A stretch of 64,000 bases of DNA. Origin: Isurus oxyrinchus. Lineage: Eukaryota. A program made the translations under genes and the position numbers. Location of the stretch: positions 66,216,001-66,280,000 of the forward strand of contig JANJGN010000020.1 of assembly GCA_026770705.1 (NCBI GenBank), given 5' to 3'. Numbering within the stretch: the first letter of the stretch is position 1; every line of letters starts with the position of its first letter. A model generated the notes under the pieces. It searched no databases. It saw nothing but the letters and a program-made list of their open reading frames with translations, and was not told where the DNA came from. Positions 4,561 to 62,740 of this stretch are shown piece after piece.

Positions 4561-4859
4561 TTCATCGTATTGTAATGCCCAAGTGCTGCCTCAGACATGA
4601 CACAATTGCACTTCTTTTAAAAGTGATAGCTGTGAAATGGGAAGTCGGTGTGATAAACAGGAATTGCAAACAAGGTGCAAGACATTTAATTTGAGTTTAC
4701 CTTATAATGTAACTGCTCTGTACTGGGGCAGGAATTATGGAATGTTATAGTTAGTATTGGTACTGTGATAGTGATTATGGGGTTGTCATTATTATCACTG
4801 GTTACAAGAATCAGTAACTCTGGACAGCATTAATAAGTTACATTGATTATTGGGGTATT

Positions 4860-26937: not shown

Positions 26938-27159
26938 TAAAAACAAAAAACTGCGGATGCTGGAAATCCAAAACAAAAACAGAATTACCTGGAAAAACTC
27001 AGCAGGTCTGGCAGCATTGGCAGAGAAGAAAAGAGTTGATGTTTCGAGTCCTCATGACCTCAGTTCTGTTGAAGGGTCATGAGGACTTGAAACGTCAACT
27101 CTTTTCTTCTCCGCCGATGCTGCCAGACCTGCTGAGTTTTTCCAGGTAATTCTGTTTTT
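26938..27159. mobile_element. Short Penelope-like pLTR insertion with inverted duplication
   Basis: 14-bp TSD GCTTTACTTTCGAA at 26924-26937 and 27160-27173; nearly identical to the 4228 element; hammerhead motif 27062-27100 (+). Confidence 0.85.
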
Positions 27160-31035: not shown

Positions 31036-33310
31036 TGAGGTAAAAATATTACACGCCACTGAATGATACAGCGGCAATGGAGGTAAAAATATTACACTGC
31101 TATTGAAAGATACAGGGGCAATGGACGTAAAAATATTACACTGCTGTTGAAAGATACAGGGGGCAATGGAGGTAAAAATATTACACTGCTACTGAAAGAT
31201 ACAGGGGGCAATGGAGGTAAAAATATTACACTGCTACTGAAAGATACAGGGGGCAATGGAGATAAAAATATTACACTGCTACTGAAAGATACAGGGGGCA
31301 ATGGAGGTAAAAATATTACACTGCTACTGAAAGATACAGGGGGCAATGGAGGTAAAAATATTACACTGCTACTGAAAGATACAGGGGGCAATGGAGGTAA
31401 AAATATTACACTGCTACTGAAAGATACAGGAGCAATGGAGGTAAAAATATTACACTGCTACTGAAAGATACAGGAGCAATGCAGATAAAAATATTACATT
31501 GCTACTGAAAGATACAGGGTCAATGGAGGTAAAAATATTACATTGCTACTGAAAGATACAGGGGGCAATGGAGGTAAAAATATTACACTGCTACTGAAAG
31601 ATACAGGGGGCAATGGAGGTAAAAATATTACACTGCTACTGAAAGATACAGGGGGCAATGGAGGTAAAAATATTACACTGCTACTGAAAGATACAGGGGG
31701 CAATGGAGGTAAAAATATTACACTGCTACTGAAAGATACAGGGGGCAATGGAGGTAAAAATATTACACTGCTACTGAAAGATACAGGAGCAATGGAGGTA
31801 AAAATATTACACTGCTACTGAAAGATACAGGAGCAATGGAGGTAAAAATATTACATTGCTACTGAAAGATACAGGGGCAATGGAGGTAAAAATATTACAT
31901 TGCTACTGAAAGATACAGGGGCAATGGAGGTAAAAATATTACACTGCTATTGAAAGATACAGCGGCAATGGAGGTAAAAACATTACACTGCTACTGAAAG
32001 ATACAGGGGCAATGGAGGTAAAAATATTACACTGCTACTGAAAGATACAGGGGCAATGGAGGTAAAAATATTACACTGCTACTGAAAGATACAGGGGGCA
32101 ATGGAGGTAAAAATATTACACTGCTACTGAAAGATACAGGGGGCAATGGAGGTAAAAATATTACACTGCTACTGAAAGATACAGGGGGAAATGGAGGTAA
32201 AAATATTACACTGCTATTGAAAGATACAGCGGCAATGGAGGTAAAAACATTACACTGCTACTGAAAGATACAGGGGCAATGGAGGTAAAAATATTACACT
32301 GCTACTGAAAGATACAGGAGCAATGGAGGTAAAAATATTACACTGCTACTGAAAGATACAGGGGGCAATGGAGGTAAAAATATTACGCTGCTACTGAAAG
32401 ATACAGGGGGCAATGGAGGTAAAAATATTACGCTGCTACTGAAAGATACAGGGGGCAATGGAGGTAAAAATATTACACTGCTACTGAAAGATACAGGGGG
32501 CAATGGAGGTAAAAATATTACACTGCTACTGAAAGATACAGGAGCAATGGAGGTAAAAATATTACACTGCTACTGAAAGATACAGGAGCAATGCAGATAA
32601 AAATATTACATTGCTACTGAAAGATACAGGGGCAATGGAGGTAAAAATATTACACTGCTACTGAAAGATACAGGGGCAATGGAGGTAAAAATATTACACT
32701 GCTACTGAAAGATACAGGAGCAATGGAGGTGAAAATATTACACTGCTATTGAAAGATACAGCGGCAATGGAGGTAAAAACATTACACTGCTACTGAAAGA
32801 TACAGGGGCAATGGAGGTAAAAATATTACACTGCTACTGAAAGATACAGGGGCAATGGAGGTAAAAATATTACACTGCTACTGAAAGATACAGGGGGCAA
32901 TGGAGGTAAAAATATTACACTGCTACTGAAAGATACAGGGGGCAATGTAGGTAAAAATATTACACTGCTACTGAAAGATACAGGGGGCAATGGAGGTAAA
33001 AATATTACACTGCTACTGAAAGATACAGGGGCAATGGAGGTAAAAATATTACACTGCTACTGAAAGATACAGGGGGCAATGGAGGTAAAAATATTACACT
33101 GCTACTGAAAGATACAGGGGCAATGGAGGTAAAAATATTACAGTGCTACTGAAAGATACAGGGGGCAATGGAGGTAAAAATATTACACTGCTACTGAAAG
33201 ATACAGGAGCAATGGAGGTAAAAATATTACACTGCTACTGAAAGATACAGGGGGCAATGCAGATAAAAATATTACATTGCTACTGAAAGATAGAGGGGCA
33301 ATACAGATAA
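31036..33310. repeat. 44/45-bp minisatellite, about 50 highly homogeneous copies
   Basis: Unit AATGGAGGTAAAAATATTACACTGCTACTGAAAGATACAGGGG(G)C. Confidence 0.98.
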
Positions 33311-33616: not shown

Positions 33617-35134
33617 CTGGCATTAGTACTGGAGACTTATGCTCCAGAACCTGCCGCGCCCCTAGCCAAGCTGTTCCAGTACAACTACAACACGGGCATC
33701 TACCCAACCGTGTCGAAAATTGCCCAGGTATCTCCTGTACACAGAAAGCTGGACAAAACTAACCTGGCCAATTACCCCCCCAGCAGTCCACTCTCGATCA
33801 TTAGTAAAATGATGGAAGGGGTCTTCAGCAATGCTACCAAGTGGCATTTGCTTAGCAATAAACTGCTCACTGATGCTCAGTTTGGGTTCCGCCAGGGCCA
33901 CTCAGCTCCTGACCTCATTACAGCCTTGGTTCGAACATGGACAAAAGAGCTGAACTCCCGAGGTAAGGTTAGAGTGACTGCCTTTGACATCAAGGCTGCA
34001 CTTGACTGAGTGTGGCATTAAGGAGCACTATCAAAACTGGAGTCAATGGGAAACAGGTGGAAACTCACTGCTGATTGGATTCATACCTAGCACAAAGGAA
34101 GACAATTGTAGTTGTTGGAGGTTAGTCAGCTTAGCCCCAGGACATCACTGCATGAGTTCTTAGGGGTAGTGTCCTAGGCCCAACAATCTTTAGCTGCTTG
34201 ATCAATGACTTTCCTTCCATCGTAAAGTCAGAAGTGGGGATGTTTGCTGATGATTGCACAATGCTCAGCATCATTCGTGACAACTCAGATACTGAAGCAG
34301 CCCACGTCCAAATGCAGCAAGACCTGGACAACATCCAGGCTTGGACTGAAAAGTAGCAAGTGACATTTGCACCACACACTTGCCAGGCAATGACCATCTC
34401 CAACAAGAAAGAATCCAACCATGGTCCCTTTACATTCAATGACATTATCATTGCTGTATTCTCCACTATCAACATCCTAGGGGTTACCATTGACCAGAAT
34501 CTGAACTGGACGAGCCATATAAATACTGTGGCTTTAAGAACAGGTCAGAGGCTAAGAATCCTGCAGTGAGTAACTGACCACCTGACTTCTCAAAGCCTGT
34601 CCACAATCTGCAAGGCACAAGACAGGAGTGTGATGGCATATTCTCCACTTGTCTGGATGAGTGGAGCTCCAACAACACTCAAGAAGCTTGACACCATCCA
34701 GGACAAAGCAGCCCGCTTGCTTGGCACTGCATCCACAAACATTCACTCCATCCATCACCGACGCACAGTGTGTACCATCTACAAGATGCACTGTAGAAAC
34801 TCAGCAAGGCTGCTTAGACAGCACCTTCCAAACCCACGACCACTATTATCTAGAGGGACAAGGACAGCAGACACATGGGACTACCACCACCTAGAAGTAC
34901 CCCTCCAAGCCCCTCACCATCCAGACCTGGAACTATATCACTGTTTCTTCACTATCACTGGGTCAAAATCCTGGAATTCCCTCCCTAACAGCATTGTGGG
35001 TGTACCTCCATCACATGGACTGCAGCAGTTCAAGAAGGCAGCTCACCACCACCTTCTAAAGGGCAATTAGGGATGGGCAATAAATGCTGGCCTAGCCAGT
35101 GAAGCCCACATCCCTTGCATGAATGGAAAAAAAA
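33617..35134 (+). mobile_element. CR1/L2-group LINE, 5'-truncated, same family as 19380-25913
   Basis: ORF track 33560-34009 and 34630-35070 (AQFGFRQGHSAPDL, FDIKAA, MFADD, SWNSLPNS); shared 3' tail. Confidence 0.92.
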
Positions 35135-37690: not shown

Positions 37691-37885
37691 ATGGCAGGGC
37701 AGCTCGGTCCCGTGTTATGTACCGCCTGCAACATGTGGGAAGCCATGGATCCTCCTTGCGCTCTGACTGACCATGTGTGCAGGAAGTGCCACCAGCTGCA
37801 GCTACTTGAGCTCCAAGTTTCGGAGCTTGAGCGGCAGCTGGAGGCACTGAGCTGCATCCGTGAGGTTGAAATTTTCGTGGATATC
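37691..37885 (+). mobile_element. CR1 LINE ORF1 N-terminus (CxxC..CxxC zinc finger and leucine zipper), fragment
   Basis: MAGQLGPVLCTACNMWE..CRKCHQLQLLELQVSELERQL, homologous to minus ORF 59298-59549. Confidence 0.8.
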
Positions 37886-38339
37886 AGCCAGAGTAGCTCA
37901 AAAGCTTGAGGAATTTCAAGCACAAATTACAGCCATGTAAACTGAGTTTCTGCAATCTTTTGCATGAATTTAAAAAAACACCTGGCTAGAAGCCAGCTCT
38001 GCCCAAAAAACTGGCCATGTTCCAAAATTGAATTGATCATTGGGACGTTTCCACTAATTGTGCTCATTTGTTGGCTTTTGAGGAGGCTCTAAAAATAAAG
38101 ATTTTAAAATTGAGAACTAATACATTGTAGAAGACTTTGCATACATTTTTGTATGGATTAATTAAGTTAACTAATGTACACCAACAAAAGTCATAAATTG
38201 TTCTGTATAATCATTTTTAAGTAATTTTTAATTAAAATCGGGTTATTCACAGATATTGGACTAGACACATTGGGAGAAATTTTCATAGGTAAGGGGAGAC
38301 AGGTTTTGGGGTGTTTGGGGAGTTAAATCCCAAAAAGTT

Positions 38340-41300
38340 TCTGGGGGCGGTGGGACCTGTACAAGGCGGATGGGTTGCACCTGAACCGGAATGGGACCAA
38401 CATCCTTGCGGGGAGAACTGCTAGTGCTGTTGGGGAGGGTTTAAAACAACTTGGCAGGGGGATGGGACCCTGAGAGGCAGTTCAGCAGGGGGAGATGAAC
38501 AGCCAAAGTTAGATGAGAGAGCAAGTGAGTGTGGAAGGCATAGAAATTATAGGCCAGTTAAGGCACAAGGGAGTTTGGCAAGGTTGGATGGTATTTATTT
38601 TAATGCAAGGAGTCTGACAAATAAGGCAGATGAGTTGAGGGCACGAATTAACACATGGAAGTATGATGTCGTTGCTGTTACAGAGACATGGTTGAGAGAG
38701 GGACAGGATTGGCAGCTCAATATTCTAGGATATAGGGTCTTCAGGCGAGACAGGGAAGGAGGTAAAAGAGGAGGGGGTATCACAATATTGATCAAGGAAT
38801 CAATTACAGCAGTAAGGAGGGATGACATCTTAGAAGGCTCCTCAAATGAAGCCATATGAGTAGAACTTTAAAAACAAAAAAGGAGCAGTCACATTGCTGG
38901 GAGTGTACTATAGGCCCCCAGACAGTCAAGAGAGAAATAGAAGAACAGATATGTAGGCAGATTTCAGAGAAGTGTAAAAATAATAGGGTAGTAATGGTGG
39001 GGGATTTCAACTTCCCCAACATTAACTCGGTTAGTTATAGTATGATAGGTTTAGAGGGAGCGGAATTCTTAAAATGAATCCAGGAGAGCTTTTTTAAGTC
39101 AGTACATAGAAGGTCCTACAAGAGAGGGGTTGGTCTTGGACTTAATTTTAGGGAATGAAGCCGGGAAAATGGTAGAGGTATCAGTGGGGGAGCATTTTGC
39201 AGATAGTGATCATAACTCCTTTAGATTCAAGGTGGTTATGGAAAAGGACACGGGTGGGCCAGGAATCAGAGTTCTAAATTGGGGAAAGGCCGATTTTAAT
39301 AAGATCAGATATGATTTGGCCAGGGTGTACTGGGAGCAGCTACTTTTAGGTAAATCTGCGTCAGAGCAGTGGGACTCATTCAAGAAGGAAATAGGGAGAG
39401 TACAGGGCCAACATATTCCAGTAAAGACAAAGGGTGGGACCAACAAATCCAGGGAACCCTGGATGTCGAGGGACGTACAGAAATAGATAAAGAGAAAAAG
39501 GGAGGCTTATGGCAGATACCGAGGGCTCAGAACAGCGGATGCCCTCGAGGAGTATAGAATGTGTAGGGGGGACATTAAAAAGGAAATTAGGAGACCAAAA
39601 AGGGGCCATGAAAAAGCATTAGCAGGTAAAATAAAGGAAAATCCAAAGTTATTTTACAAGCTCATTAAGAGTAAGAGGATAACTAGGGAAAGATTAGGAC
39701 CCATTAAGGACCATAGTGGTAATTTGTGTGTGGAGCCGGAAGACATAGGTAGGGTTCTAAATGAATACTTTGTGTTGGTGTTCACAAGTGAGAGGGATGA
39801 CGTGGATATGGAAATTCGGTAGAAGAACTGTGATATAATTAAAGCAATTAGCATAGAAAGGGAGGGAGGTTCTAAGTAGGCTTAAAAGTAGATAAATCTC
39901 CAGGCCTGGATGAAATGTATCCCAGGCTGTTGAGTGAGGCAAGGGAGGAGATAGCAGGGGCACTGGCAGTAATTTTCAATATCTCCATGGCCACAGGAGA
40001 GATGCCAGAGGACTAGAAGACAGCCAATGTTGGTACCGTTATTCAAGAAGGGAGGAAGGGATAAACCAGGGAACCACAGGCCATTCAGCCTAACCTCAGT
40101 GGTGGGGAATCTGTTGGAAGCAATTCTGAGGGACAGAATTAATCTACACTTGGAGAGGCAGGGATTAATCAAGGACAGTCAGCATGGTTTTGTTAAGGGA
40201 AGGTCATGGTTGACCAATTTGATTGAATTTTTTGAAGAGGTGACCAGGTGTGTAGATGAGGGCAATGCATTTGACGTAGTTTACTCGGACTTCATCAAGG
40301 CTTTTGATAAGGTCTTGAATGGGAGACTGATAATGAAGGTAAGAGCCTATGGGATCCAAGACAAATTGGCAAATTGGATCCAGAGTTGCCTGAGTAGCAG
40401 GAAGCAGAGAGTGATGGTCGAGGGATGTATTTGTGACTGGATGCCTGTGTCCAGCGGGGTTCCACAGGGATTGATGTTACATCCTTTGCTGTTTGTGGTA
40501 TATATAAACGATTTAGACTTGAATGTCAGATGGTTGATCAGTTCGTGGATGAGACAAAAATTGGTGGGGTGGTAAATAGTGAGGAGGACAGCCTTAGATT
40601 ACAGGAGGATATAGACGGGCTGGTCAGATGGGCTGATTGGTGGCAAATGGAATTTAATCTGAATAAGTGTGAGGTGATGCACTTGGGCAGGACAAACAAG
40701 GCATGGGAATACATGATGAATGGTAGGACCCTGGGACATACTGAGGATCAGAGGGACCTTGGTGTGAATGTCCACTGGTCCCTTAAGGTAGCAGGACAGA
40801 TACATAAGGTGTTTAAGAAGGCATATGGGATACTTGCCTTTATTAGCCGAGACATAGAATATAAGAGCAGGGAGATTATGCTTGTCCTACCACCCCCCCA
40901 CTCCACCCCCCCCCCCCCCCCCAAAAAAAAACAGCTTATATTTCACCTCTCTTCTATTTTTACTTAGTTCTGTTGAAGAGTCATACGGAGTCGAAACATT
41001 AACTGTGTTCCTCTCCACAGATGCTGCCAGACCTGCTGAGTTTTTCCAGGTATTTTTATTTTTGTTTTGGATTTCCAGCATCCGCAGTTTTTTGCTTTTA
41101 GATTATGCTCGAACTGTATAAAACGCTGGTTAGGCCACAACCAGAGTATTGCGCGCAGTTCTGGAATCCACATTATAGGAAGGATGTGATTGCACTAGAG
41201 AGAGTGCAGAGGAGATTTACCAGGATGTTGCCTGGGCTGGAGAGTTTTAGTTATGAAGAGAGATTGGATAGACTGGGAGCAGAGGAGATTGAGGGGGGAC

Positions 41301-44714: not shown

Positions 44715-45037
44715 CTCTTCTCCTTCCTCTCTGTTCCCTCCCCCTCCTTCCTCTCTGTTCCCTCCCCCTCCTTCCTCTCTGTTCCCTCCCCCTCCTTCCT
44801 CTTTGTTCCCTCCCCCTCCTTCCTCTCTGTTCCCTCCCCCTCCTTCCTCTCTGTTCCCTCCCCCTCCTTCCTCTCTGTTCCCTCCCCCTCCTTCCTCTCT
44901 GTTCCCTCCCCCTCCTTCCTCTCTGTTCCCTCCCCCTCCTTCCTCTCTGTTCCCTCCCCCTCCTTCCTCTCTGTTCCCTCCCCCTCCTCCCTCTCTGTTC
45001 CCTCCCCCTCCTCCCTCTCTGTTCCCTCCCCCTCCTT
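44715..45037. repeat. 24-bp polypyrimidine minisatellite (CTCTCTGTTCCCTCCCCCTCCTTC), about 13 copies
   Basis: Near-exact tandem units directly abutting the 5' truncation point of the next LINE. Confidence 0.95.
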
Positions 45038-45039
45038 CA

Positions 45040-47480
45040 CCCGATCAAATTGGCAGAGGTAGCCCCGAGCAAGAATTTATATGATGTATTCGGGACAGTT
45101 TGTTAGAACAATATGTTGTGTATCCAAGCAGGGATCAGGCTATTTCGGATCTGGTAATATATAATGAAGCAGGGTTAATAAATGATCTCAGAGTAAGAGA
45201 TTCCCTAGGAAATAGTGACCATAACATGTTAAAATTTAGCATTCAGTTTGAGATTGAGAAACTTGGGTCGGAAACAACTGTGTTAAACTTAAATAAAGGT
45301 AATTACAAAGGAATATGGGCAGAGTTGTCTGGAGTGGACTGGGAAAGGAGTTTAGCAGAAAAGGCAGCTGATGAACAATGGCAAACATTTAAGAAAATAG
45401 TTTATGACTCACGACAAAGATATATCTTTGTGAGGAAGAAAGATTCTAGGAAGGGGATAAACCAACCATAGTTAACCAAAGAAGTTAAGGATAATTTCGA
45501 ATTGAAAGAAAAAACATACAATGTGGCAAGGATTAGTAGTAAACCAGAGGATTGGGGAAGTTTTAAAAATTAACAAAAGATGACCAAAAAAAATAAAGAG
45601 GGAGAAAATAAACTTTGAGGGTAAACTAGCAAGTAATATAAAAACGGACAGTAAGAGCTTCTTTAAATATATAAAAAGGGAGAGGCCAAAGTGAACATTG
45701 GCCCCTTAGAGAATGAGGCTGGGGAAATAATGGGGATCACCAAATGGCAGGGGAGTTGAATAAATACTTTACATTAGTCTTCACAGTACAAGACACTAAT
45801 AGCATTCCAAAAATACTAAATAATCAAGGGCAAAAATGGGGGAGGAAATAAATACAATATCTATCACTAGAGAAAAAGTATTAGGGAAACTAATGGGGCT
45901 AAAGGTCAATAAGGCCCCTGGATCTGATAGGTTGCATTCTAGGATATCAAAGGAAATAGCTACAGAGATAATGAATGCACTGGTAGTAATCTGCTAAAAA
46001 TCCTTAGATTCTGGAAAAGTCCCGGAGGATTGAAAAACCGCCAATGTAACACCCTTATTCAAAAAGGGAGGGAGACAAAAAAACAGGTAACTATAGGCCA
46101 CTTAGCTTAACATCTGTCATTGGGAAAATATTAGAATATTATAAGGGATGTAATAGCAGAGCGTTTAGAAATGCATAATTTAATCAAGCAAGTCAGCATG
46201 GCTTCATGAAGGGGAAATCATGCCTGACAAATTTATTAGAATTCTTTGAGGAGGTAACAGGCTGGATAGATAAAAGGGAACCAGTAGATATAATGTATTT
46301 GGATTCCAAAAGGCATTCAATAAGGTACCGCACACAATGCTACTCAATGAGATAAAAGCCCATGTGTTGGGGATAGTGTATTAGCATGGATAGAGGATTG
46401 GCTAACTAATAGAAGACGGAGAGTTGAGATGGGGGGACATTTTCAGGATGACAACCTGTAAACTAGTGGAGTACACAGGGATCAGTGCTGGGACCATCAT
46501 TCTTTACAATATATATTAATGACTCAGGTGAGGGGAGTGAATGTACTATTGTCAAGTTTGCGGATGATGCAAAAATAGGTGGGAAGGCAAGTGATGAGGA
46601 TGACACAGAGTCCACAGAGGGATATAGACAGGTTAAGTGAGTGGACAAAAACTTGGCTGATGAAATATAATGTGGCAAAATGTGAGATTATGCACTTAGG
46701 CGGGAAGAATAGAGGAGCTGAATATTATTTAAATAGAGAAAGACTCTCAAAAAGCTGCAGCACAGAGGGATTTGGGGGTCCTCATGCATGAATCGCAAAG
46801 GGCTAGCATACAAGTTCAGCAGATAATAGGGAAGCAAATGGAATGTTGGCCTTTATTTCAAAGGGAATGGAGTATAAAGATAGGGGAGTCTTCCTAAAGC
46901 CATACAGGGCACTAGTCAGGCCACACCCAGAATACCGTGGACTGTTTTGGTCCCCTTATCTAAGGAAAGATATACTGGCGTTGGAGGCAGTCCAGAGAAG
47001 GTTCACTAGATTGATCCTGGGTATGGAGGGATTTTCTTATGAGGAGAGGTTGAGTAGGTTGGGCCTGTACTCATTGGAGTTTAGAAGAATGAGAGGCGAC
47101 CTTATTGAAACATATAACATTCTTTGGGGGCTTGATGGGGTAGATGCTGAGAGGTTGTTTCCCCTCATGGGAGAGTCTAGGACCAGTGGGCATAATCTCA
47201 GAGTGAGGGTTCGCCCATTTAAGACAGAGATGAGAAAGAATTTCTTCTCTCAGAGGGTAGTGCATCTGTGGAATTCTTTACCACAGTGGACTGTAGAGGC
47301 TGGGCCATTAAGTATATTCGAGGCTGAGATAAACAGATTTTTAATCAGTAAGGGAATCAAGGTATATGGGGAAAATGCAGGAAAGTGGAGTTGAGGATTA
47401 TCAATCAGCCATGATCTCATTGAATGGTGGAGTGGACTCGATGGCCCGAATTGCTTACTTCTGCTCCTACATCTTATGGT
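45040..47480 (+). mobile_element. CR1 LINE, 5'-truncated within the endonuclease region
   Basis: LGNSDHN, QHGFMKGKSCLTNLLEFFE, KFADDAK, ORF 46843-47394 C-terminus; ends cctacatcttatggt. Confidence 0.92.
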
Positions 47481-47697: not shown

Positions 47698-49462
47698 CTT
47701 TCTCCCTCCTTTCTGTCTTCCTCACACAATTACTTTGGAATTGAAGCTTGGATGACTCATGCAAAAGCACAGTTAGCAAATGGGTTGAAACTTGTTGACA
47801 GGCATGGTGAAAACTGTACCATAGGAAGTACATTTTACTGTTGCAGGAGGCGCGAGATATATTTAAGGATGCTTTCCATAAAGATAAAACTCATGCTGAA
47901 GGCTTAATTTATTGTAGCAACTTCTCAGCATGATAGTGCAGTGAGCACGGTTATTTTGCAGGAGATTAGTTCAATTGAGCACCTACTTAACACAAGCTTA
48001 TGAAATAGGAGCAGAAGTAGGCCATTTGGCATCTCGAGCCTGCTCAGCCATTGAGTAAGATCATGACTGCTTTGCTTGTGTTTCAAATTCCACATTCCCA
48101 TCTACCCACAATAATCTATATTGCAGGATTTGCACAAAGTGTGGTGGCGTTAGGGAGAAAGGACATTTTACCTGCCAGCCGCACTGGCAGGTTTTCGCAC
48201 TGTAGCGTTCCATTCCCGGCACATCCCACTTCATTAATAATGTATTCCCGGTAAACTCGCTGCATTGCTGGCAGGATGGCCTCAGATTCGCCTGCCCCAA
48301 TATCACCTCAGGCCTTCAATAATTGGGTGCCATATTTAAAGGGCCCCCCTGCACAGAGCTAGCACTCTTGAAGGGATCGGAAGCTGCTGCAAAGTCATGG
48401 CTGCCAAAGGGAGGAAACATGCTGCCCCCAAATTTAGCGACGTCTCCCTCGGGTGCCTGCTGAACACAGTTGAGGCCCGTCGTGAAGACCTCTACCCCTC
48501 TTTGGGTGAAGACCAGCGAGCAAGGTTACCATTTGAGCATGGGATGTGGTGGCAGAGATCATCAGCGCCAACACCGTACAAAAGAAGTCAACCAGCCAAT
48601 ACCAAAGAGGATAAATGATCTTCTCTGTTCCGCCAAGGTAAGTCACTCTTCTCATCACTCTCAACTCTCACTCACAAACCCATCAAATATCCACAGGGAT
48701 CTCACTCACTGCCAACAACCTCACCGCTCACATTCTCACATACACCTTCATCTGCCACATGGATCGTGTTCTCATCCCGTCCATGTCACTATTCACCACC
48801 CACACTTGCCAGGCATCCTTCTCATCTGGCCTGGCAGGCGTCATACCTCAGCTGCTGGAGATGCAAAGGCAAGCTCGGGAACATCAGGAAGGGATGTCCA
48901 CTGCACTCCTCAGATTGTAAGGCATGACTAAGGAGTCTGTCTGCCTTCAGTTTGAGGTGATAGCGCTGGCAAGCTCTGGCATGCAGTCAACACTGTAGGA
49001 TGGCAGCCACCATGGAGACTTAGTCCAGGACATCGGTCCTGCACTACTACACGGGCTGAACTCCATCACTGATGCCGTAGTTGGCCTCCAACAGTGGAAC
49101 TGCGGGAGGGATGTGGGGCAGCTTGATTTCACTCCATCTTCCCCTTCTCAAGGAGTCAGCCAGGGGCCTTCGAGCAGGAATAGGAAGGAGGATCAGCAGG
49201 TGCACACACCGGGGTCATCCACCCTGGTGACTCCAGGAGTGTCTAGCCCATCCGAGTCCCCTCTTCTTGTGACTCCAGCAGCTCCAAATCCACAGGCCAA
49301 GGAGGGTGCCACTGCCACCTAGCAGGACACCGAAAGCTGGCGTGGCCCTCCAGAGGACATGGCCAAGCTCATCACCATACGTAGCAGTCAGCAGGCTGCC
49401 TCCACCTCCACTGTGGATGTCCGGGGACATAGTGGCAGGGTTAGGAAGGTTGAGAAGATGTA

Positions 49463-49711
49463 ACTCTTTTAGAGTTAAAACAATTAAACTAAACTAACAA
49501 AATAAGGGATAAATCAAGCACAGCCCCTAAGTCAGGTCAGCTGTAAAACCAAGAACAAAGTTTAAAGGAAACTTACAAACATTAAACCAAGATGTGATTA
49601 AAGGGGTCGATAAAGCACCCCAGTCCCCGCGGTGCCCACCGAGCACGGAAGGCCTCGAGAGTGCCAGCAGACACTGCGTGCTTCCTCTCCAAGGACACCC
49701 GGCCGCAAACG
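49463..49711 (-). mobile_element. Tx1-type (L1 clade) LINE 3' fragment
   Basis: Minus translation VCGRVSLERKHAVSAGTLEAFRARWAPRGLGCFIDPFNHILV*, then a T-rich ~120-nt 3' UTR ending CTCTAAAAGAGT; 11-bp TSD GAGAAGATGTA (49452-49462, 49712-49722); clade call from recalled C-terminal similarity. Confidence 0.72.
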
Positions 49712-49722
49712 GAGAAGATGTA

Positions 49723-49979
49723 ACTCTTTCGAGTACAAACCCGTTTCCATCTGTTCCTATTCAGATGAAGCTACATTGTTTCATAGTTTGCCATTGTGAG
49801 ATTTGAACTCTTGATCTTGGGGTTACAAACCCAGTACCGTAACCACTTGGCTATTTAGGCCAAGCAAAATATTTGTTCAATGTCTCTTCCATTTCATAGT
49901 TTTGCTATTGTGAGATTTGAACTCTTGATCTTGGGGTTACAAACCCAGTACCATAACCACTTGGCTATTTAGGCCAAGC
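49723..49979 (-). mobile_element. Dimeric tRNA-Thr(UGU)-derived SINE
   Basis: Two heads GCCTAAATAGCCAAGTGGTTAYGGTACTGGGTTTGTAACCCCAAGATCAAGAGTTCAAATCTC (A box, TGT anticodon, B box); one tail ending CTCGAAAGAGT; 14-bp TSD ACGGAGAAGATGTA. Confidence 0.8.
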
Positions 49980-49994
49980 TACGGAGAAGATGTA

Positions 49995-50132
49995 ACTCTT
50001 TCGAGTACAAACCCATTTCCATCTGTTTCAGATGAAGTTACATTGTTTCATAGTTTGCCAATGTGAGATTTGAACTCTTGATCTTGGGGTTACAAACCCA
50101 GTACCATAACCACTTGGCTATTTAGGCCAAGC
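49995..50132 (-). mobile_element. Monomeric tRNA-Thr(UGU)-derived SINE
   Basis: Same family as 49723-49865; flanked by ACGGAGAAGATGTA at 49981-49994 and 50134-50147. Confidence 0.82.
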
Positions 50133-53100
50133 CACGGAGAAGATGTAGTTGCACAGCCTGGGAACAGTTGTTAATCACTTGTACCTAATGTTCACTGTTG
50201 TAAATAAACTCTCAAGAATGTTACCTTGCCTATGGCACTGTGTTATGAGCAGTGTTTGTGTCACTCAGATGTGAAACCTTGGTTCCTGCAGAAGATAAAG
50301 GCAGGTGTCCCAGTCCAGGGCCTCTTCTCTGTGTGGTGTGTAACCTTCAGACCAAATTGATGGTCTGGCTTCACATTCACTGAACACATTACTGATGCCT
50401 GCACCTCGATGGTGCTCATCATTGCTGCCAGAATGTCATGGCCAGGAGCCACAGAATTACATAATTCTCTCTGTGTGCTCTCAGCACCTTTGAGGTGGGG
50501 CTGACCTGCTCCACCCACCTTTCCAGCATCTGAGACTGGTGACACTGTGCTCCTGAAAGGATCAGGTACTGAAGGCTGACAAAGGATCAGATGCCTTTCA
50601 AGTTTCACAGCTGCGTGTCCATGATGTGATCCTGATCACAGAGCGCAGGCGAGCTGCCCTCAGCCAAGTAGGGGTCAGACATTCACAGAGACAATGTGAA
50701 GATCTGTGGAGCGCCCTCACTGCATGTTGTCATCATCCTCCTGGAATCTAGCGACTATTAGGACCTCCACGACATGACCCAGAGCACTGAGGGTATGTCC
50801 ACTGCCATCAGCCAAACAGGAGTCAAAAATTCATAGATGCAAGTGAGGATGTCAGGACTGTCCTCAATGCATCTTGTTGTCATCCTCCATGAATCTTGTG
50901 GCTATGAGTGCCTCCCGAGCGCGCCTGCCTCACCTGACCAGTGCAATGGTCTCATCGTCGGTATCCTTGCTGTCAAGGACCTCACCATCATCGCCTTCAG
51001 CATTCTCCTTGTCGGAAGATTCGTGCAGCTCCTCCACCTCCTCCTCAGCCAGGTGTCCCCCACCCCCTCATTGCAGCGGCAGATTGTGAAGCTCGCAGCA
51101 AACGCAATGATGCATGAGACACTCAGTGGACCCTACTGCAGTGCTCCACCGGACCTGTCGCAGCACCAGAACCTCATTTTCAAATGCCTATTGTTTCCTC
51201 CAAAGTCCAGGTCATGGCATGAGCCTCGTTATGCCGTTGCTCTGCTGCAGTCTGAGGCTGCATCAGCCATGCCCTCTCTGGGTAGCCCTTGTCCCCGAAG
51301 ATCCAACCCTGCAGCCTCCCTGGACCCGGAATATGTCAGGGATCTGAGACCTGCTATGGATGTAGGAGTCATGGACATTTCCTGGGAATCATGCATAGAC
51401 CTGTAGGTTGCACACCAGCTGAAAATTCAGCGAATGGAAGCCCTTGTGGTTGACGTAGTTGTTTGTTGCCACAGAGATCTAAGCGCCACATGAGTGCAGT
51501 CGATGGCACCCTGAACCTGTGGAAAACCAGAGATCCGCGCAAATCCCAGCGCTCTTATTTCCTGGCTTTCCTGATCTCGGACGAAATGCATAAAGTTCAG
51601 TTCCTTCGCGAAGGTGGCATTCATGACCTCTGTGATGCACTTGTGCATGGAGGCTTGTGAGATTCTGTACAGGTCACCTGTTGAGCCCTGGAAAGAGCCA
51701 CTCACCTAAAGATTGAGCGCTGTGGTCACTTACATGGCCACTGGCAGTGGATGCCTGCCATGACCCTGTGGCGCCAAACCCTGCGGCAGGTGGAGTATGT
51801 GACTGACCAGCCCACTAGACATGCTCAGTCTTCACTGACATTGATTCTCAGTCATCTGCAGGAATGACAGGTGCCGTCTATAGACCCTAGGTCTAGCAAT
51901 GTGCCTACAACGATGACTCGCTGTGGATCTTCAGCTGCGTGTGCAGCAGGCCGTGCTGCCCTCTCATCCTGAGGGAGGTGCTCCCTTTGCTGACCCAGGA
52001 CCTCTGCCACTCTCCTTCTCTAGTGTTTGTAAGCCATGAGGCATACTGCTAAATCACCAGGCTCCATGATCCTGATGCCCTGCTCCTGCAGAATCAGAGA
52101 GAGACGAGTGGGTTAGCATAGGCGTAACAGGAGCCTCTCTTGGTTAAATCTGAAGGCCCTTCATGCATGCAGGTGAGTGCTGGCCACCACTTGGATGGCC
52201 AATGTGTAGTGCGCTCATTGGCTGTCCGAATCCCCACCCACCTCTGCCCCACTCCACTTGACCAGTAGGTGGCAGCTTTGGCCATTGGACTACATGCTGT
52301 GCTCTCAGCTCAGGCACAGGCATTCTCCTAACCCACACTGCAAGACTGTGTTATTAAGCTGGAACCATGATGGATTCTGGTCCAAACATTAATAAAGACA
52401 TTGCAAGGGGCTGTGAGTGCCTCCACCACTGACTGCTCCACGGCCACTTTTCACAAGGGGATTTTACAACTTGCCCAGTCGGCCAATTGCTCTGCTGCCC
52501 CCCAAAATGTATATTAATTTGCAGTCTGTGTGCACAAGGTGAAAAGTTCTGGAACATTTGATGGTGCTTTCATCTTTTGCATTGCTTGAATGGGCAGAAA
52601 AGCTTCAGCGGCCCGACTCCAACCGTGTACAATGGCCTCAGCTGTGAAAGAGTGCTCACTTTTGACAAGCTTTTCCAAGTACATGGCCACTTCCCTCACC
52701 CCGCACTTCCCCAACCCACCTACACGTGCTTGAGTATTTCCTTCCGTCTGTGCTACCTTGCCCTTTACCGTCACCTCCTCCCCACCCCCAGCTTGACCCG
52801 CACTGGAGCCCTTGCCCCAGCACCGCACTGAAAGCCAGCTGGGAAAAAGCCTGTGTCCCCCACGAATGCGCAGTGCCTCTTCTTTGATGTTGAGCGGGCA
52901 ATGCTCACGAGCGCTGTGTAAGGTTGTGTGCACTCCTCCAAGTTCCTTCAAAGTTCAGGTCACCAGGTGCACACCTTTTAAAGGCAGTGGTGAAGCGCGC
53001 TGTGCTGAAGTCACAGTCATGTGGGTGGTATATTTGACGTGGGGGACTGATTCCGGTGAGCGGGGCTTATAATTAGATGCAAATGTATTAAACTGACGTT

Positions 53101-53311
53101 CCCAGTGTGCAGTCGTGGGAAACACAGCTCGCCATCGACGGGTGGAGGATGACGGCATGTTGTTTCCACAGTCCCGCCCGCTATGATGCCTGACGCCAAC
53201 GGGGGCTGGAAAATTCCGGCCGCAGTGTTTAGTTTTGTTGATGGGTGTTTGTTGCTCAAGTTAACTGTGCAATTCAGGTTCTGAACCTAACTTCTCCTAT
53301 TTTATTTTTAG

Positions 53312-53924: not shown

Positions 53925-54230
53925 AGAGAACTTAAGAATGTAAAAAATAGGAGCAGGAGTATGGCATTCGGCCCCTTGAACCTGCTCCACCATTCAATAA
54001 GATCATGGCTGATCTGGTTGTGGCCTTAACTCCACTTTCCTGCCTGTCCCTTGTAAATCAAAAACATCTCTAACTCAACCTTGAATGTATCCAATGATCC
54101 AGCCGCCACTGCTCACTGGAGAAGAGAATTCCAAACACTGAGAAGAAAAGTTCCTTCCCCCCTTTTAAATTCCTGTTTAAGATGGGAGACCCCTTATTTT
54201 GAAACTGTGTCCCCTAGTTCTAGATTCCAC
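53925..54230 (-). mobile_element. CR1 3'-end fragment
   Basis: Reverse-complemented CR1 3' UTR similar to 4860-5180. Confidence 0.75.
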
Positions 54231-56181: not shown

Positions 56182-57220
56182 CAGCATGGTCCAACCTTTT
56201 TGCATGAGGGGCCACATTTCAATTTTTTCCTGACTCAAGTGGCCAATGATCAAATTTCAGAAAGTTAAAGTTTGGCACAAAATTAAACATGAATTTCAAA
56301 AAAAAAAGAAAAGAAACAGCTTTCTGAGCAAAAATCAAAAATGTCGAAGCAATAAATTGATCATTTTTAAAAATGACTAATTAATAAAGATGACCATTAG
56401 AGAGTGGGTGCGTGTCCGGCTCACACTCAGCCTCGGGGTGCTCACTCACTCACCCTCACCCACTGTGTGAGTGGCGTCAGAGTGTGTGTTGGTGTTTGGG
56501 GTTGAGGGTGAGTGAGAATCCTGAGATTGGAAGTGAGCCAGACACATAACACACAATCTCACACANNNNNNNNNNNNNNNNNNNNNNNNNNNNNNNNNNN
56601 NNNNNNNNNNNNNNNNNNNNNNNNNNNNNNNNNNNNNNNNNNNNNNNNNNNNNNNNNNNNNNNNNNNNNNNNNNNNNNNNNNNNNNNNNNNNNNNNNNNN
56701 NNNNNNNNNNNNNNNNNCACATTGTCTCACATACTCATTCACTCTCTCACACTCTCACTCATTCTCTTGCACAAACTCACTCTTTCACACAAATTTACTC
56801 ATGCCTGCCCGGCCCAGGAGGTTTGGAGGTTAAAACACTGTGGAGAGGTTCAGGATGGCTGTGAAAGTGCCAAGACTCTTCCTCCCCGCCCTTGTCTAGC
56901 ACTCGAGCTGTCCTGGGTCCCACTATTGCTGCAACTGCCACTCCACCATCTTGACTCCTGTATACTCCTGTATACCTTTAGGGATTTTGTCTCCCCCCCG
57001 CCCCCCCACACAACCTTTCCCCTACTCCCAGAAACAGCCTCTCAGTACCCCCTCCCTGCCCCCTCCCAGAGCAGACAGTCTCTCTTCCCCTGTCCCCGCT
57101 CCCCACCCCCAGCACTCACTAGTGAGCCTTTCAGCATCAGCTCCTTGCAGATTCTTTCACTTGCACTTACCAGTATTCTGTACACCGAATAGAGAGGCAT
57201 GGTGGGCCTGATTGTGGCCC
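56182..57220. mobile_element. Possible hAT (Charlie-like) non-autonomous element spanning the assembly gap
   Basis: Starts CAGCATGGTCCAACCTTTT..GGGCCACATT; ends ..GGGCCTGATTGTGGCCC where it is cut by a CR1; right TIR not seen. Confidence 0.4.
56566..56717. other. Assembly gap (152 N) within CA-rich sequence
   Basis: Run of n characters. Confidence 1.
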
Positions 57221-57221
57221 A

Positions 57222-59760
57222 AGGAATTCCAAAGATTCACAACTCTCTGAGTAAAGAAACTTCTCCTCATCTTGGTCCTAAGTGGGCTTCCCCCTTATTT
57301 TGAAATTGTGCCCCCTAGTTCTAGACTCCCCAACTAGGGGAAACATCTTACCTGTATCTACCCTGTCTATTCCTTTAAGTATTTTGTAGATTTCAATGCG
57401 ATCACCTATCATTCTTCAAATTCTCTTCGAAACTCTGAAGAATACAGCCCCAGTTTCCCCAATCTCTCTTCATAAGACAGTCCCGCCATTCCTGGAACAA
57501 GTCTGGTGAACCTTTGTTGCACTCTCTCAATGGCAATAATATCCTTTCTGAGGCAAGGGGACCAAAATTGCACACTGTACTTCAGGTGCAGTCTACCCAA
57601 GCTTCTATACCTTTTTGGGATTTTTGTACCTTGAAGGAATGTATAGGTGCTGTAAGTTATGTAAGAGTTCTTTGAAGACTATCCATTGCCTATGTACAGT
57701 CATACCTTTTAATGTATTTTCCCAATCCACCTCAGCCAATTTGTCCCTCATGCCTTCGTAATATCCTTTATTCAACTTTAGCACCCTTGCTTCAGAGTGA
57801 ACTGCCTCACTTTCAAACATAATGTAAAATTCTATCAGATTGTGGTCACCTATCCCTAAAGGTTCTTTTACAACAAGATTATCAATTAACCCTTTTTCAT
57901 TTCATAACTCCAGATCTAAAATAGTCTGTCCTCCAGTCGGCTCCTCAACATACTGCTCTAGAAAACCATCCTTAACACTCCAGAAACTCGTGTTCCACAG
58001 CATTAATGCTCAATTGGTTTACTCAGTCTATATGCAGATTGAAGTCACCCATGATTACTGTATTGCTGGTGCTACATGCTTCTCTCATCTCCTGATTAAT
58101 ACCATGCCCCACATTACCACTACTGTTTGGTGGCCGATAAACAACTCTAACCAATGTCTGCTGCCCTTTGCTGTTTCTTAGCTCCACCCACAGATTCCAC
58201 ACATTGTTCTTCCGATCTGAGATCCTCCCTTATCCCATTCCTTATTATCAGCACAACTCCATCTCCTTTCCTTTCTTGTCTGTCCTTCCTAAATGTCAAA
58301 TATCCTTGAATATTCAGTTCCTAGTCTTGGTCACCATGCAGCCATGTTTCCATAATGGCAATTATACCCATTTACCTCTATTTGTGACTTTTGATCATAT
58401 ACCTTATTGTGAATGCTGCGTGTATTCAGGTAGAGTACCCTTAACTTTGTCTTTTTGACAGCATTTCACATTCCAATCATACTCAATGACCTGCTTTGTT
58501 CCTCCTGCCTTCTGGTCTCACCACTACTTACTGTTACCAATTTTACTTTCTTCCACTTTGGGCCACCTCTCAGCTTCCCCGCTCCCCCACCGCGCCCAAG
58601 CTAGTTTAAACCCACCCCAACAGCACTAGCAAGACTCCCTGCATGTATATCAGTCCCAGTCCTGTTAAGGTGTAACCCAACCAACTTGTACAGGTCCCAC
58701 CTGCCCCAGAACCAGTCCCAATGCCTCAGCAATCTGATGTCCTCCTTCCTACACCAGTTCTCCAGACATATTTAATTGACCTATCCTATTCCTATGCTCA
58801 CTAGCACATGGCACTGGGAGTAATCCTGAGATTACTGCTGCTGAGGTCCTGCTTTTTAATTTCCTTCCTAACTCCCTGAAATCTGCTTTCAGGACCTCAT
58901 CCCTCTTCCTGCCTACGTCATTGGTAACAATGTGGACCACGACTTCTAGCTGATCTCCCTCCCCCTTAAGGAGGTCCTGCAGTTGCTGCGTGACATCTTT
59001 GACCGTGCCGCCAGGGAGGCAACACACCATCCTAGAGTCACGTTTACTGTCGCAGAAACACATGTCTGATCCCCTGACTATGGAATCTCCTATCATTATT
59101 GCCCTTCCATTCTTCTTCCGCCACCCCCCACCCCACGCCACCTCCTGTTTAGCTGAGCCGCCTGTGGTGCCACAGGCTTGGCTCTGGCTGCACTCCCCTG
59201 AGGAACCATCCAAAATGGAAAGCTGATGAGCTAGCAGGATAGACTCAGGGGGCTCCTGAACTACCTGCCTGGTTTTCTTAGACTGCCTAGCGGTCACTCA
59301 TTCCCTCTCCGGCTGTATGCTTCTGATCTGTGGTGAGACCACTTTCCTAAATGTGCTATCCACGTAGTCCTCTGCCTCGCAGATACACAACAGTGACTCC
59401 AGCCACCACTCAAGTTCTGAAACTCGGAGCTCAAGTTTGTGCAGCTGGTGACACTTGGTGCAGATGTGTTTGTCTGGGACACATGGTGTGTCCACAACTT
59501 CACACATACCACAGGGTGTACACTCCGCTTGGCAGAGTTGACCTGCCATCCCGTAACTCTCAAAACTATTTATTATAGTTGGAGTAAGTAGAATTACTAG
59601 TACCTTAACTTTACTACACTTATGCTAACTTTATCTTAATTTGGTTTACTTTATTACTTCATTTCACTTTGACTTGATTTAATTTTACTTCCCTATTTTT
59701 ATTTAAACACACTCCCCAACAGCAACTTCTCACTAACCAATGAACTTAGAGTTCTCCTGT
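57222..59760 (-). mobile_element. CR1 LINE with 5' UTR, ORF1 and endonuclease, with a large internal RT deletion at ~57600
   Basis: ORF1 zinc finger/zipper 59549-59298 and esterase GDSIVRG (58749-59297); endonuclease region ~58430-57600 fused directly to RLHLKYSVQFWSP C-terminal segment. Confidence 0.88.
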
Positions 59761-59789
59761 GTTGTCACTCCTAGATTTTTTTTTCAAAC

Positions 59790-62740
59790 TCAGCCCGCTG
59801 CCCAAATAGAGGTGCCCCCCGCAGGTCCACCTGTCTCCACTCCCGGAAGGTGAGTCTTGGTTGAAGCGAACATGCAGCCTTGCAGTGTGGGTTAGGAGAA
59901 TGCCTATACCTGAGCTGAGAGCACAGCATGCAGTCCAGTGGTCGAAGCTGCCCCGAGTTGGTCAAGATGGCGTGGAGCGGAGTGCACTACATACTAGCCA
60001 TCCAAGTGGTGGCCGGCACTCTCCGCTTGCGTGAAGGGACCTTCAAACTTAGCAAAAGAGGTTCTTAGTACACCTGTACTAACCCACACGTCTCTCTCTT
60101 TGATCCTGCAGGAGCAGAGCATCAGGATCATGGAGCCTGATAATTTAGCAGAATGCCTAATGGCTTGTAGAAGAGAGAGGTGGAGGCACCTGGCTCGGCA
60201 AAGGGAGGAACACCTCCCTCAAGATGAAGGGGTGACAGAGCATGCTGTGCACACAGCTGAAGATCCACAAAGAACCGTTGCTCGTAAGCGCCTTGCTAGA
60301 CCCAGGGTTTATGAACGGCACTTGTCATTCCTTCAGATGACCAAGAGCCAGCATTGCCGAAGACTGCACATGTCTAGGGACCTGGTCAGTCACATATGCC
60401 ACTGCTGCAGGATTTGGTGCCACAGGGGCATGGCGAGCATCCACTGCCAGTGGCTGTGAAAGTGACTGCGGTGCTCAATTTCTATGCCAGTGATTCCTTC
60501 TATGCCTCCAGAGGTGACCTGTGTGGGATCCACACACCACGTGTATCCAAGAGGTCACAGGCACCATTTTCACAATGGCACAAACTTTGTGCATTTCACC
60601 CAGGATCAGGAAAGCCAGGAAGCAAGAGCATTGGGAATTGTGCAGATCTCTGACATCTTCCAGGCTCCAAGTAGGCTGCTGGGTTGGCTCCTCAGGTACA
60701 AGGCTACCCACAGAGGACGTGGCTGATGACTATGGCAAAGCGACGGTATAATGAGGCTCATGCTGCAATCCAGACTTTGGTGGAGCAAACCATAGGCATT
60801 TTGAAAATGAGGTTCCAGTGCCTCGACAGGTCGGGTGGGGCACCGCAATACAGTCCCCAGAGTGTCTCACATATCATCGTGCTTGCTGTGCGCTCCACAA
60901 CCTGGCACTGCAAAGTGGGTGAGGACCTGGCTGAGGAGGAGATGCACGAGTCCTCTGATGAGGACGGTGAAGGGGATTACAGGGATGTGGTCCTTGAAGG
61001 CAAGGATGGCGGTGATGAGGTTATTGCACTGGCCTGATGAGCCAGGCGCACTTGGGAGGCCCTCATAGCAGCAAGCTTCATGGAGGATGATGACAAGATG
61101 CAGTGGGGACAGTTCTGACATCCTCATCTTGAACCTGTGAACATTTGACTCTTGTGTGGCTGATGGCAGCCATGGAGACGCATTGGAGGCCCTAATAGTC
61201 GCTAGATTCCAGGAGGATGATGACGACATGCAGTGAGGACATTCCATAGATCTTAACTGAGCCCCTGTGAATGTCTGATTCCTGTCTGGCTGAGGGTAGC
61301 TTGCTTGTGCTCTGTGATCAGGATCATATCATGGAGACGCAGCCGTGAAACTTTAAATGCATCTAATCCTTTGTCCGCCTTCAGCACCTGAGCCCTTCAG
61401 GAGTACAGTGTCACCAGACACATGCTGAAGAGATGGAGGGCCAGCCCCAGCTCAAAGGTGCTGAGAGCACACAGAGAGAACATTGGAAATCTGTGATACC
61501 TGTCCACAACATTCTGGCAGCAATGACAAGCACCATCGAGGTGCAGACATCACTAGCGTGTCCAGTGAGTGTGAGGCTGGACCATTATTTTGATCTGAAG
61601 GTTACACACTGCACAGGGAAGAGGCCCTGAACTGAGACACCTGCCTTTATCTTGTGCAGGAACTAAGGTTTCACATCTAAGTGACACGAACATTGCTCAT
61701 CACAACAACGAGCCCACAGTCAAGGAGACATTCTTGGGAGTTTATTCACAATAGTGAATATTAAGTACAAGTGATTAACACCCATGCCCAGGCTGCGCAA
61801 CATCTCCTGTGGCTCAGCTGGCAGCATTCCTGCCTCTAGTGCCTGACAGTTGTAGGTTCTAGCTCGACTCCAGGCCTTGAAGAGAGTTAAGGAAAAGGAA
61901 TATTCACAATGTGGCCTATCAGCCCATGAACCCTTACCTTAAAGGGTCACATCCCCTTAACCTTCCTAACCCGATTGATATGCACTGTCTGTGGTGACCT
62001 TGTCGGGTGTCCTCTGGAGGGCCCGGGCCTGCTTTCTAGGTCCTGCTGTGTGGCAGTGACACCCTGCTCAACTGTGGAGCTGGAGCTGCTGGGGTCACAG
62101 GAAGAGGGGATTTGAACGGGCCGGACACTCCCTGATGGCCCCGTGGCATGCACCAGCGGATCCTCTTCCCTGTGGGTACCCGAGGACGCCTGGCTGACTC
62201 CTTGAGAAGGGGAAGTTGGAATGAAATCAAGCTGCCCCACACCCTGTTCGCATTGACACTGTTGGAAGCCAACTATAGTATCAGCAATGGAGTTCAGCCC
62301 ATGCAGCAGTGCAGGACCAATGTCCTGGACCATGGTCTCCATCCTACCAGTTTTGACCCCAGTGCATTGGTATGCTGGTGCTATTACCTCAGCCTGAAGG
62401 TGGACGGACTCCTCCATTATGCCTTGCAATCTGAGGAGTGCAGCGGACAACCCTTCCTGATGTTCCCGAGCTTGCCTTTGCAGCTCCAGCAACTGAGGTT
62501 TGACCGAGTCCAGAGGCTCCTCATCTGACTCGGATTCAGCAGATTTCTGGCCTCCAGCCGTCCTCTGAGTGCCAGAAAGCTGAGAAGTCCCTGCCGCCGC
62601 CTGCTGTGGATCAGACGGTGCTTTGCGCTCACCAGATTATGACCCCGAGACTACTCTAGAACTAGGTCCCAGAGAGGTGTATGTCTGCGCTGAGGGAAGG
62701 TATGGGTGCACCCTGTGATGGTTGTTCAATTAGGGTGTCA
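59790..62740. mobile_element. PIF/Harbinger copy 2 (decayed, partial), inverted relative to copy 1
   Basis: Transposase on + from ATG 60130 (MEPDNLAECL..YNEAHAAIQTLVEQTIGILKMRFQCLDRSGG); Myb/SANT-ORF C-terminal exon on - (61947-62492); colinear with 48840-52130. Confidence 0.87.
61808..61947 (+). mobile_element. Short tRNA-headed SINE inserted in Harbinger copy 2
   Basis: TGGCTCAGCTGG (A box), GGTTCTAGCTC (degenerate B box), ends AAAGGGT; flanked by ACATCTCC / ACATCCCC; absent from copy 1. Confidence 0.6.

Follow-up and report, generated by a model that had tools for sequence, protein, structure and literature searches.

Tx1-clade long interspersed elements (LINEs) and their short interspersed elements (SINEs) are already known to nest at a fixed position within a DNA transposon. 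The closest described case is crocodilian: Tx1-Mar LINEs and SINEU-1, -2 and -3 share preferred sites in Mariner-N4_AMi, and a Tx1 family is taken to be target-specific when more than 20% of its flanks lie in one repeat (Kojima, 2015; PMC4494074). The biochemical precedent is Xenopus Tx1L in its target Tx1D (PMC1950540, PMC1919474), and the known signature of stringent SINE/LINE pairs is a 3' stem-loop with compensatory changes (Ohshima, 2013; PMC3747384). We have analysed a 64,000-nucleotide stretch of Isurus oxyrinchus DNA (GCA_026770705.1, contig JANJGN010000020.1, positions 66,216,001 to 66,280,000), referred to below as the window and numbered from its first letter. Here, three inserts join a decayed Harbinger transposon (H1) at a single base, namely a Tx1-clade LINE 3' fragment and two inserts of a SINE that we call SINE-A, and a further SINE, SINE-B, occupies the homologous site in a second Harbinger copy (H2).

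The locus resembles the crocodilian system in that a Tx1 LINE and SINEs occupy one preferred site inside an old DNA transposon, in that insertion is opposite to the host (in crocodilians at one of two hot regions), in that tandem SINE copies sandwich the target-site duplication (TSD), apparently through sequential insertion as in SINEU-3, and in the apparent presence of 5' additions, which in SINEU arise by template switch (PMC4494074). It differs in its host, Harbinger instead of Mariner, and in its SINEs, which have transfer RNA (tRNA)-type heads (putatively so in SINE-B) and no poly(A) where SINEU have U1/U2 small nuclear RNA (snRNA) heads and poly(A) ends; moreover, LINE and SINEs share a terminal hairpin here, whereas no LINE-like 3' end was found for SINEU-1 (PMC4494074). 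Rfam scans found no snRNA match in SINE-A or SINE-B and neither ends in poly(A), so that the present SINEs work like SINEU yet are not SINEU. In alligator, a Tx1 LINE (Tx1-9_AMi) prefers three Harbinger families, much as the present LINE would target its own, but the Tx1-9_AMi site lies about 300 bp in from the 5' end of the transposon and the present one is internal, at a stop codon between convergent open reading frames (ORFs); the available part of that report names no partner SINE for Tx1-9_AMi, which we set beside the present LINE by description only (PMC4494074). With Tx1L the present LINE shares its clade, by way of a protein, P0007, discussed below, and a target inside a DNA transposon (PMC1950540, PMC1919474, PMC4494074). 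Tx1D is a non-autonomous piggyBac-type element, and no SINE partner is given for Tx1L in the available text (PMC4494074). Tx1L has a sequence-specific endonuclease of the apurinic/apyrimidinic (APE) type, and the present LINE, being likened to Tx1L, would have one as well (PMC1950540, PMC1919474). As in stringent pairs, the SINEs would borrow LINE machinery through a common 3' structure; the table of such pairs names no Tx1 partner, and unlike in those pairs the shared part here spans about 13–18 nt, ends at the last base and has no repeat tail (PMC3747384). The novelty lies in heads of tRNA type, in the hairpin tag and in the Harbinger site used. Our literature search found no description of this system, including in the available parts of PMC4255032 (on coelacanth composite insertions) and PMC5753468; Repbase and Dfam lay outside its coverage, and the families may already be catalogued there.

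An earlier note on this DNA had claimed that one motif occurs four times and separates three inserts of one orientation that join the target at one base. Indeed, the 11-mer GAGAAGATGTA has four exact matches in the window (starts 49452, 49712, 49984 and 50137) against a mean of 0.03 in shuffled sequence, none of 100 shuffles reaching four; with one mismatch tolerated there are five matches against 1.29 expected, which is weak by itself. The copies bound three intervals of 249, 261 and 142 bp, each ending, on the minus strand, in AAAGAGT immediately before the repeat. These hold the LINE 3' fragment (249 bp), a dimeric SINE-A and a SINE-A monomer, all antisense within the decayed Harbinger (Table 1). 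The two SINE insertions of that note are both SINE-A, but the middle insert consists of two arms joined head to tail, each with its own tRNA-like head, which brings the SINE heads to three. A 14-mer extension of the motif, ACGGAGAAGATGTA, is present in three of the four repeat copies (49709, 49981 and 50134). TSDs of 11 and then 14 bp, as proposed, hold in one register, and a 1-nt ambiguity at the junctions makes 10 and 13 bp the alternative. The 11-mer is host sequence and not element consensus, because the reading frame of the Harbinger runs on through its left copy and H2 carries its own, diverged variant.

Both hosts are assigned to PIF/Harbinger by their transposase sequence, in keeping with the host named earlier: the DDE_Tnp_4 match of H2 (27.4 bits, E 3e-6) exceeds the cut-off of 24.8, and H1, with its weaker match, aligns to H2, 12 kb away, at 74–78% identity by blastn (78.5% over 2548 columns). 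In both copies insertion took place where the same frame ends (RVRKVEKM-stop in H1, RVRKVKGM-stop in H2). In H1 it falls within the stop codon, and the junction stop after insertion is TAA in H1 and TGA in H2; the 5'-side target copy of H2 has no stop at that place, which cautions against over-reading the stop-codon site. H1 probably reaches left to about 48150. A frameshifted H1 exon at about 48397–48638 looks Myb-like by eye, but neither Pfam nor the Atlas supported it or a Myb domain in the second ORF. A Myb/SANT-like domain is the described feature of the second Harbinger ORF (PMC9179366). No convincing pair of terminal inverted repeats was found in H1, both copies being decayed and internally deleted and the ends of H2 not having been searched systematically. 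When the transposase frame of H2 was compared with the PDB, nothing meaningful was returned. Both copies contain a tandem duplication of 130–147 bp near the transposase 3' end (50653–50915 and 61055–61300), which is therefore older than their split. Where the H2-like part of H1 ends on the right, a GC-rich stretch (52350–53230) follows, with a possible transposon end at about 53200–53221 that has no left partner; this may be the true end of H1 or a separate element. At about 59870, H2 breaks off against an apparent 5' part of another LINE (57900–59870, with matches at 37778–38454).

The site specificity proposed in the earlier note has gained an independent replicate that was absent from its account, SINE-B, at the same site of H2 (about 59.9–62.5 kb). 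On its 3' side, SINE-B joins the host in the same register as all three inserts of H1. Local alignment of SINE-B with the H1 inserts gave scores of only 14–17, reached by 74–211 of 300 shuffles, and an equal length of flank scores 155; as judged from these alignments SINE-B is unrelated to the H1 inserts while the flanks align; SINE-B is accordingly an independent insertion and not one passed down with the Harbinger. Outside this site, the only extra stretch of at least 12 bp in H2 is one of 15 bp at the alignment edge. Under a uniform null, the chance of one insert falling there is about 2e-4 for the same base and orientation and 1.4e-3 for a position within 3 nt. Within the window, both Harbinger copies are occupied and all four such inserts lie at this site. 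An A box followed by a B box at tRNA spacing was found for 4 of 23 A-box matches, which are the three SINE-A heads and SINE-B, the latter with a perfect A box and one mismatch in its B box relative to the box consensus.

The LINE fragment is assigned to the Tx1 clade in two steps, which supports the Tx1-type identity claimed for it. Pfam did not recognise it, and in a direct homolog search with its 42 amino acids none of five candidates matched; a HMMER search of 1.84 billion representatives gave six matches at E ≤0.001, of which four align end to end and two (P0005 and P0006) were discarded on reading as repeat-rich chance matches. One of the four end-to-end homologs led to P0007 (one match among 481 candidates), which bears an RVT_1 tail and a zf-RVT domain and whose C-terminus is identical to the fragment at 30 of 42 positions (71%). 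P0007 in turn is 41% identical to Xenopus Tx1L ORF2 over 99% of its length (E 1.5e-138; four matches among 8000 candidates scored), and matches human L1 ORF2p with an E of about 1e-6 only, over residues 9–181. A relative, P0009, has an N-terminal APE endonuclease (Exo_endo_phos, E 2e-17). The copy is truncated, its 5' end lying inside ORF2, and is flanked on both sides by the 11-bp (or 10-bp) repeats; it has no reverse transcriptase domain itself, and tblastn over the 64 kb found no second Tx1 sequence. Its ratio of observed to expected CpG is 0.84 (127 nt) against 0.16–0.39 in the Harbingers. The LINE would be younger than its host, because CpG is retained in the one and depleted in the other, and it probably entered an already old Harbinger copy, as far as one short fragment can indicate.

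SINE-A has the features of a tRNA-derived SINE, being 139–143 nt long, non-coding, flanked by 14-bp repeats and LINE-like at its 3' end. The Rfam tRNA model matches its heads at 50056–50127 (28.8 bits, E 0.0011), 49910–49967 (E 0.056) and 49789–49860 (E 0.17), all three below the gathering score of 29; the A and B boxes are 45 nt apart, and ARAGORN does not call a tRNA gene. The only run of four T residues (T4) among the inserts, at 49866–49869, ends the left arm of the dimer, and the monomer and the right arm contain no T4 terminator. The left arm, from its head to T4, looks like a complete RNA polymerase III (Pol III) transcript added by template jumping. A captured piece of CR1 ORF2 was considered as the source of the left-arm tail and rejected, since the best ungapped match (24 of 36) was reached by 13 of 200 shuffles. 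The two best blastn matches of this tail (49866–49895, minus strand) lie at corresponding places of CR1-like copies (5786–5803 and 45742–45770), and it could derive from read-through of a SINE copy situated within a CR1. No further copy of the LINE, SINE-A or SINE-B was found in the 64 kb by blastn (and by tblastn for the LINE).

What the LINE and both SINEs have in common is their last few bases. Poly(A) is absent from all four inserts, each of which finishes with AAAGRGT, and 4–6 bases at the very end pair with a stretch just upstream. The loop of the LINE hairpin is 3 nt, a GAAA loop sits on a 4-bp stem in the SINE-A monomer and right arm alike, and in SINE-B the A-to-G difference in the terminal word is matched by a T-to-C difference in the opposite arm, a compensatory change as judged by eye among three distinct sequences. 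Counting both strands, 5 of the 53 AAAGRGT words in the window close a stem of at least 4 bp; four are the inserts and the fifth lies in a satellite at 1–1400, outside which 4 of 31 words close a stem, all four being the inserts. The background of terminal stems in the window is 0.015 for at least 5 bp and 0.0046 for at least 6 bp. Folds of the whole elements were no better than shuffles (z −0.34 for SINE-B, 0.17 for the LINE 3' untranslated region), the stem at the 3' end being the one part to stand out, and MAFFT did not place the hairpin arms in common columns, so that no alignment-based count of covariation was obtained. The satellite itself (33 copies of 42 bp, 7–1344) holds 22 of the 53 AAAGRGT words on its minus strand; that it shares the terminal 7-mer of the inserts is probably coincidence.

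Table 1. Features of the two occupied Harbinger copies (positions in the window)
Feature	Position	Strand	Remarks
H1, decayed Harbinger-type DNA transposon	48840..52348	.	Span alignable to H2
H1 last exon of presumed Myb-like ORF	48840..49463	+	Frame homologous to open H2 frame
Target-site copy 1, 11 bp	49452..49462	+	Runs on from Harbinger flank
5'-truncated Tx1-clade LINE	49463..49711	-	C-terminus 71% identical to that of P0007
LINE terminal hairpin, 5 bp	49463..49475	-	3-nt loop
LINE ORF2, last 42 codons	49585-49710	-	Stop 49582-49584; 3' untranslated region about 120 nt; no poly(A)
Target-site copy 2, 14 bp	49709..49722	+	First 3 bases are LINE 5'-end sequence (C probably)
SINE-A dimer, right arm	49723..49865	-	Head of tRNA type; 8-bp hairpin in the tail; 4-bp hairpin with GAAA loop at the end
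SINE-A dimer, left arm	49866..49980	-	Head of tRNA type; 28-nt tail unlike that of the right arm, closing with T4
Target-site copy 3, 14 bp	49981..49994	+	14-mer match
SINE-A monomer, 139 bp	49995..50133	-	tRNA head
Target-site copy 4, 14 bp	50134..50147	+	Sole copy with original Harbinger flank across the nick
AATAAA between the two convergent Harbinger ORFs	50203..50208	+	Also in H2
H1 transposase remnant, frameshifted	50850..52000	-	Limits approximate; DDE_Tnp_4 E 0.009, below curated cut-off
H2, second decayed Harbinger	59875..62504	-	DDE_Tnp_4 and blastn to H1; inverted relative to H1
SINE-B 5' target-site copy	61800..61808	+	8 of 9 bases same as 3' copy
SINE-B, 139 bp	61809..61947	+	Homologous site, same relative orientation as H1 inserts
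SINE-B terminal hairpin, 6 bp	61930-61947	+	Ends AAAGGGT
SINE-B 3' target-site copy	61949..61957	+	Homologous to H1 11-mer

The repeats also bear on the order of events. The LINE was inserted before SINE-A, as the earlier note had it, because GT, and probably C, of the LINE 5' end recur in the outer repeats. Among the four homologs aligned, Tyr stands just ahead of the truncation point in all (4/4) and is followed by Val (3) or Ile (1), and this conserved Tyr-Val codon boundary fits C-GTT at the LINE 5' end; of the CGT attributed to the LINE in that note, GT is thus LINE sequence and C probably so. A coincidental match of these bases would be expected once in 16 to once in 64 cases, and it counts once only, because the 5' junction of the monomer cannot be separated from the head of the dimer. 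The order of dimer and monomer is not readable from the repeats, the monomer probably being last. The resemblance of the monomer start (CGTGGCT) to the SINE-B start (TGTGGCT) might suggest that GT belongs to the SINE, a reading that was rejected because those bases of SINE-B are its A box and the inner arm of the dimer lacks them.

Our working model, which we consider quite likely to be right, is that a sequence-specific Tx1 endonuclease nicks this Harbinger position, that reverse transcription starts at a hairpin-marked RNA end and that a short TSD regenerates the target. The APE endonuclease of the Tx1 LINE would nick one position of this Harbinger family, at the second ORF's stop codon, in the spacer that separates the convergent ORFs; reverse transcriptase would then start at a fixed RNA 3' end, a short terminal hairpin with AAAGRGU closing the stem and no poly(A). 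Insertion would duplicate 9–14 bp and leave an intact target on the 5' side of the element, and later events would therefore stack outward. Should the endonuclease require both sides of the nick, the outer copy at 50137–50147 alone would remain a target, and target-site copy 4 is presumed to be re-usable. In H1 the LINE fragment would have been followed by the SINE-A dimer and then, probably, by the SINE-A monomer. SINE-A and SINE-B, carrying the hairpin tag, would borrow the same or a sister Tx1 protein in trans, SINE-B having used the H2 site. Transcripts of SINE-A should run on into target sequence, because the units have no terminator of their own, and this could aid precise priming. We more tentatively suggest, as a possibility falling somewhat short of an even chance, that a minimal, portable 3' tag of about 13–18 nt, a poly(A)-less terminal hairpin, serves this Tx1 lineage and that at least two unrelated tRNA-SINE families acquired it independently, becoming site-specific parasites of Harbinger at the level of a single nucleotide.

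Several observations weigh against this model. The sample consists of two host copies, both occupied, and one LINE fragment, in one 64-kb window. The hairpins are weak (−2.7 to −7.0 kcal/mol), a competing fold wins in one of the four 30-nt ends, only 7–10 terminal bases are common to the LINE and the SINEs, and the hairpin test was devised after the pattern had been seen, in three distinct sequences. The LINE fragment has no direct match to Tx1L, so that its Tx1 link goes through P0007, and the endonuclease of this LINE is not within the window, the copy being 5'-truncated. The H2 junction is imperfect, with a 9-bp TSD identical at 8 of 9 bases and a 5' side 3 nt shorter than in H1; the register is exact on the 3' side only, and the position of SINE-B relative to the H1 site is certain only within 3 nt. 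Finally, Rfam finds no tRNA in SINE-B, the tRNA origin of which rests on the A- and B-box motifs.

Two alternatives are compatible with most of the favoured model. In the first, which we hold to be somewhat unlikely, targeting is real but guided by some short motif or local structure, present outside Harbinger too, of which the transposon merely supplies many copies. The Tx1L endonuclease is reported, in the available part of the source, to recognise about 10 bp (PMC1919474), and the H1 and H2 target sites differ at 4 of 11 bases, so that recognition would have to be tolerant. With the register shifted one base earlier, AGTT follows the nick on the nicked H1 strand, the four bases reported for the Tx1L target (PMC1950540), a likeness that is suggestive only. 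However, all four inserts in the 64 kb lie within the two Harbinger copies, and no related insert was found elsewhere, although the window contains GATGTR 56 times and RRGATGTR 25 times (these sites included).

The second alternative, that the outer SINE-A monomer arose by local duplication of a dimer unit followed by head-to-head recombination, we consider unlikely. In its favour, the first 71 nt of the monomer match the left head of the dimer and the remainder resembles the right arm, as would be the case in a recombinant, and the difference in divergence between head (1/72) and tail (4/67) is not significant (Fisher p 0.20). It requires two steps, however, one of them via a homology of only 14 bp; four substitutions separate the monomer from the right arm, together with a 5-nt indel that falls within the loop of a conserved 8-bp stem, as expected of distinct source copies; and the published reading of SINEU-3, in the section available, is sequential tandem insertion around the TSD (PMC4494074). 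Were the monomer a duplicate, one event would be removed and site specificity would be left untouched.

It is very improbable, in our estimation, that the array reflects fewer events, either read-through transcripts of existing tandem arrays or template jumping in one reaction, with the 11-mers and 14-mers RNA-borne: Pol III transcripts of the T4-less monomer and right arm must enter flanking target sequence, and the dimer itself resembles a 5' template addition, but the internal repeats hold CGT from the truncation point of this very LINE copy, which transcripts from elsewhere would lack. That the 11-mer is part of the 3' end of the elements, or that the H2 coincidence is due to chance or to inheritance of one old insert, is largely refuted, for although the same 11-mer follows all three H1 inserts and numbers are small, it lies in the Harbinger frame, SINE-B is followed by H2's own diverged variant, and SINE-B has no similarity to the H1 inserts despite flanks that are 78% identical.

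On the favoured model, the array is a compact natural record of repeated site-specific retrotransposition. If the more tentative reading holds, its portable tag would be, to our knowledge, the smallest known cis signal for trans-mobilisation by a site-specific APE-type LINE. Should the tag hold genome-wide, template choice in trans by target-specific APE LINEs would become testable with a 15-nt element, and Tx1 proteins would be candidates for RNA-templated insertion at a defined site. The stop-codon site would keep both Harbinger ORFs translatable, so that passengers could ride active Harbingers. The hairpin points to an RNA signal that a Tx1 protein may read, a question left open by the crocodilian study, as far as its available sections go (PMC4494074). 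For repeat annotation, such stacks mimic composite SINE subfamilies or parts of a Harbinger consensus.

The other repeats of the window appear similar to those of cartilaginous fishes. To the left of H1, 45085–47470 is presumably the 3' part of a decayed CR1-like LINE, an assignment to which Pfam lent no support; the tail of this element recurs at 48003–48098 and 53945–54040, flanking H1 on either side. A palindromic or inverted-repeat family is present at 4227–4562, 13125–13281, 16889–18065, 26936–27164 and 40897–41106, and includes near-perfect hairpins (4270–4562, 96% self-complementary; 16889–18027, 80%). Between the two Harbingers there is a gap of 152 N at 56566–56717. Minisatellites with units of 36, 44 and 24 bp occupy 14709–15399, 31037–33302 and 44720–45038, respectively, the 44-bp array comprising 51 copies with 96% matches, and a 1.35-kb repeat is present in two copies that are 81% identical (24578–25913 and 33785–35132).

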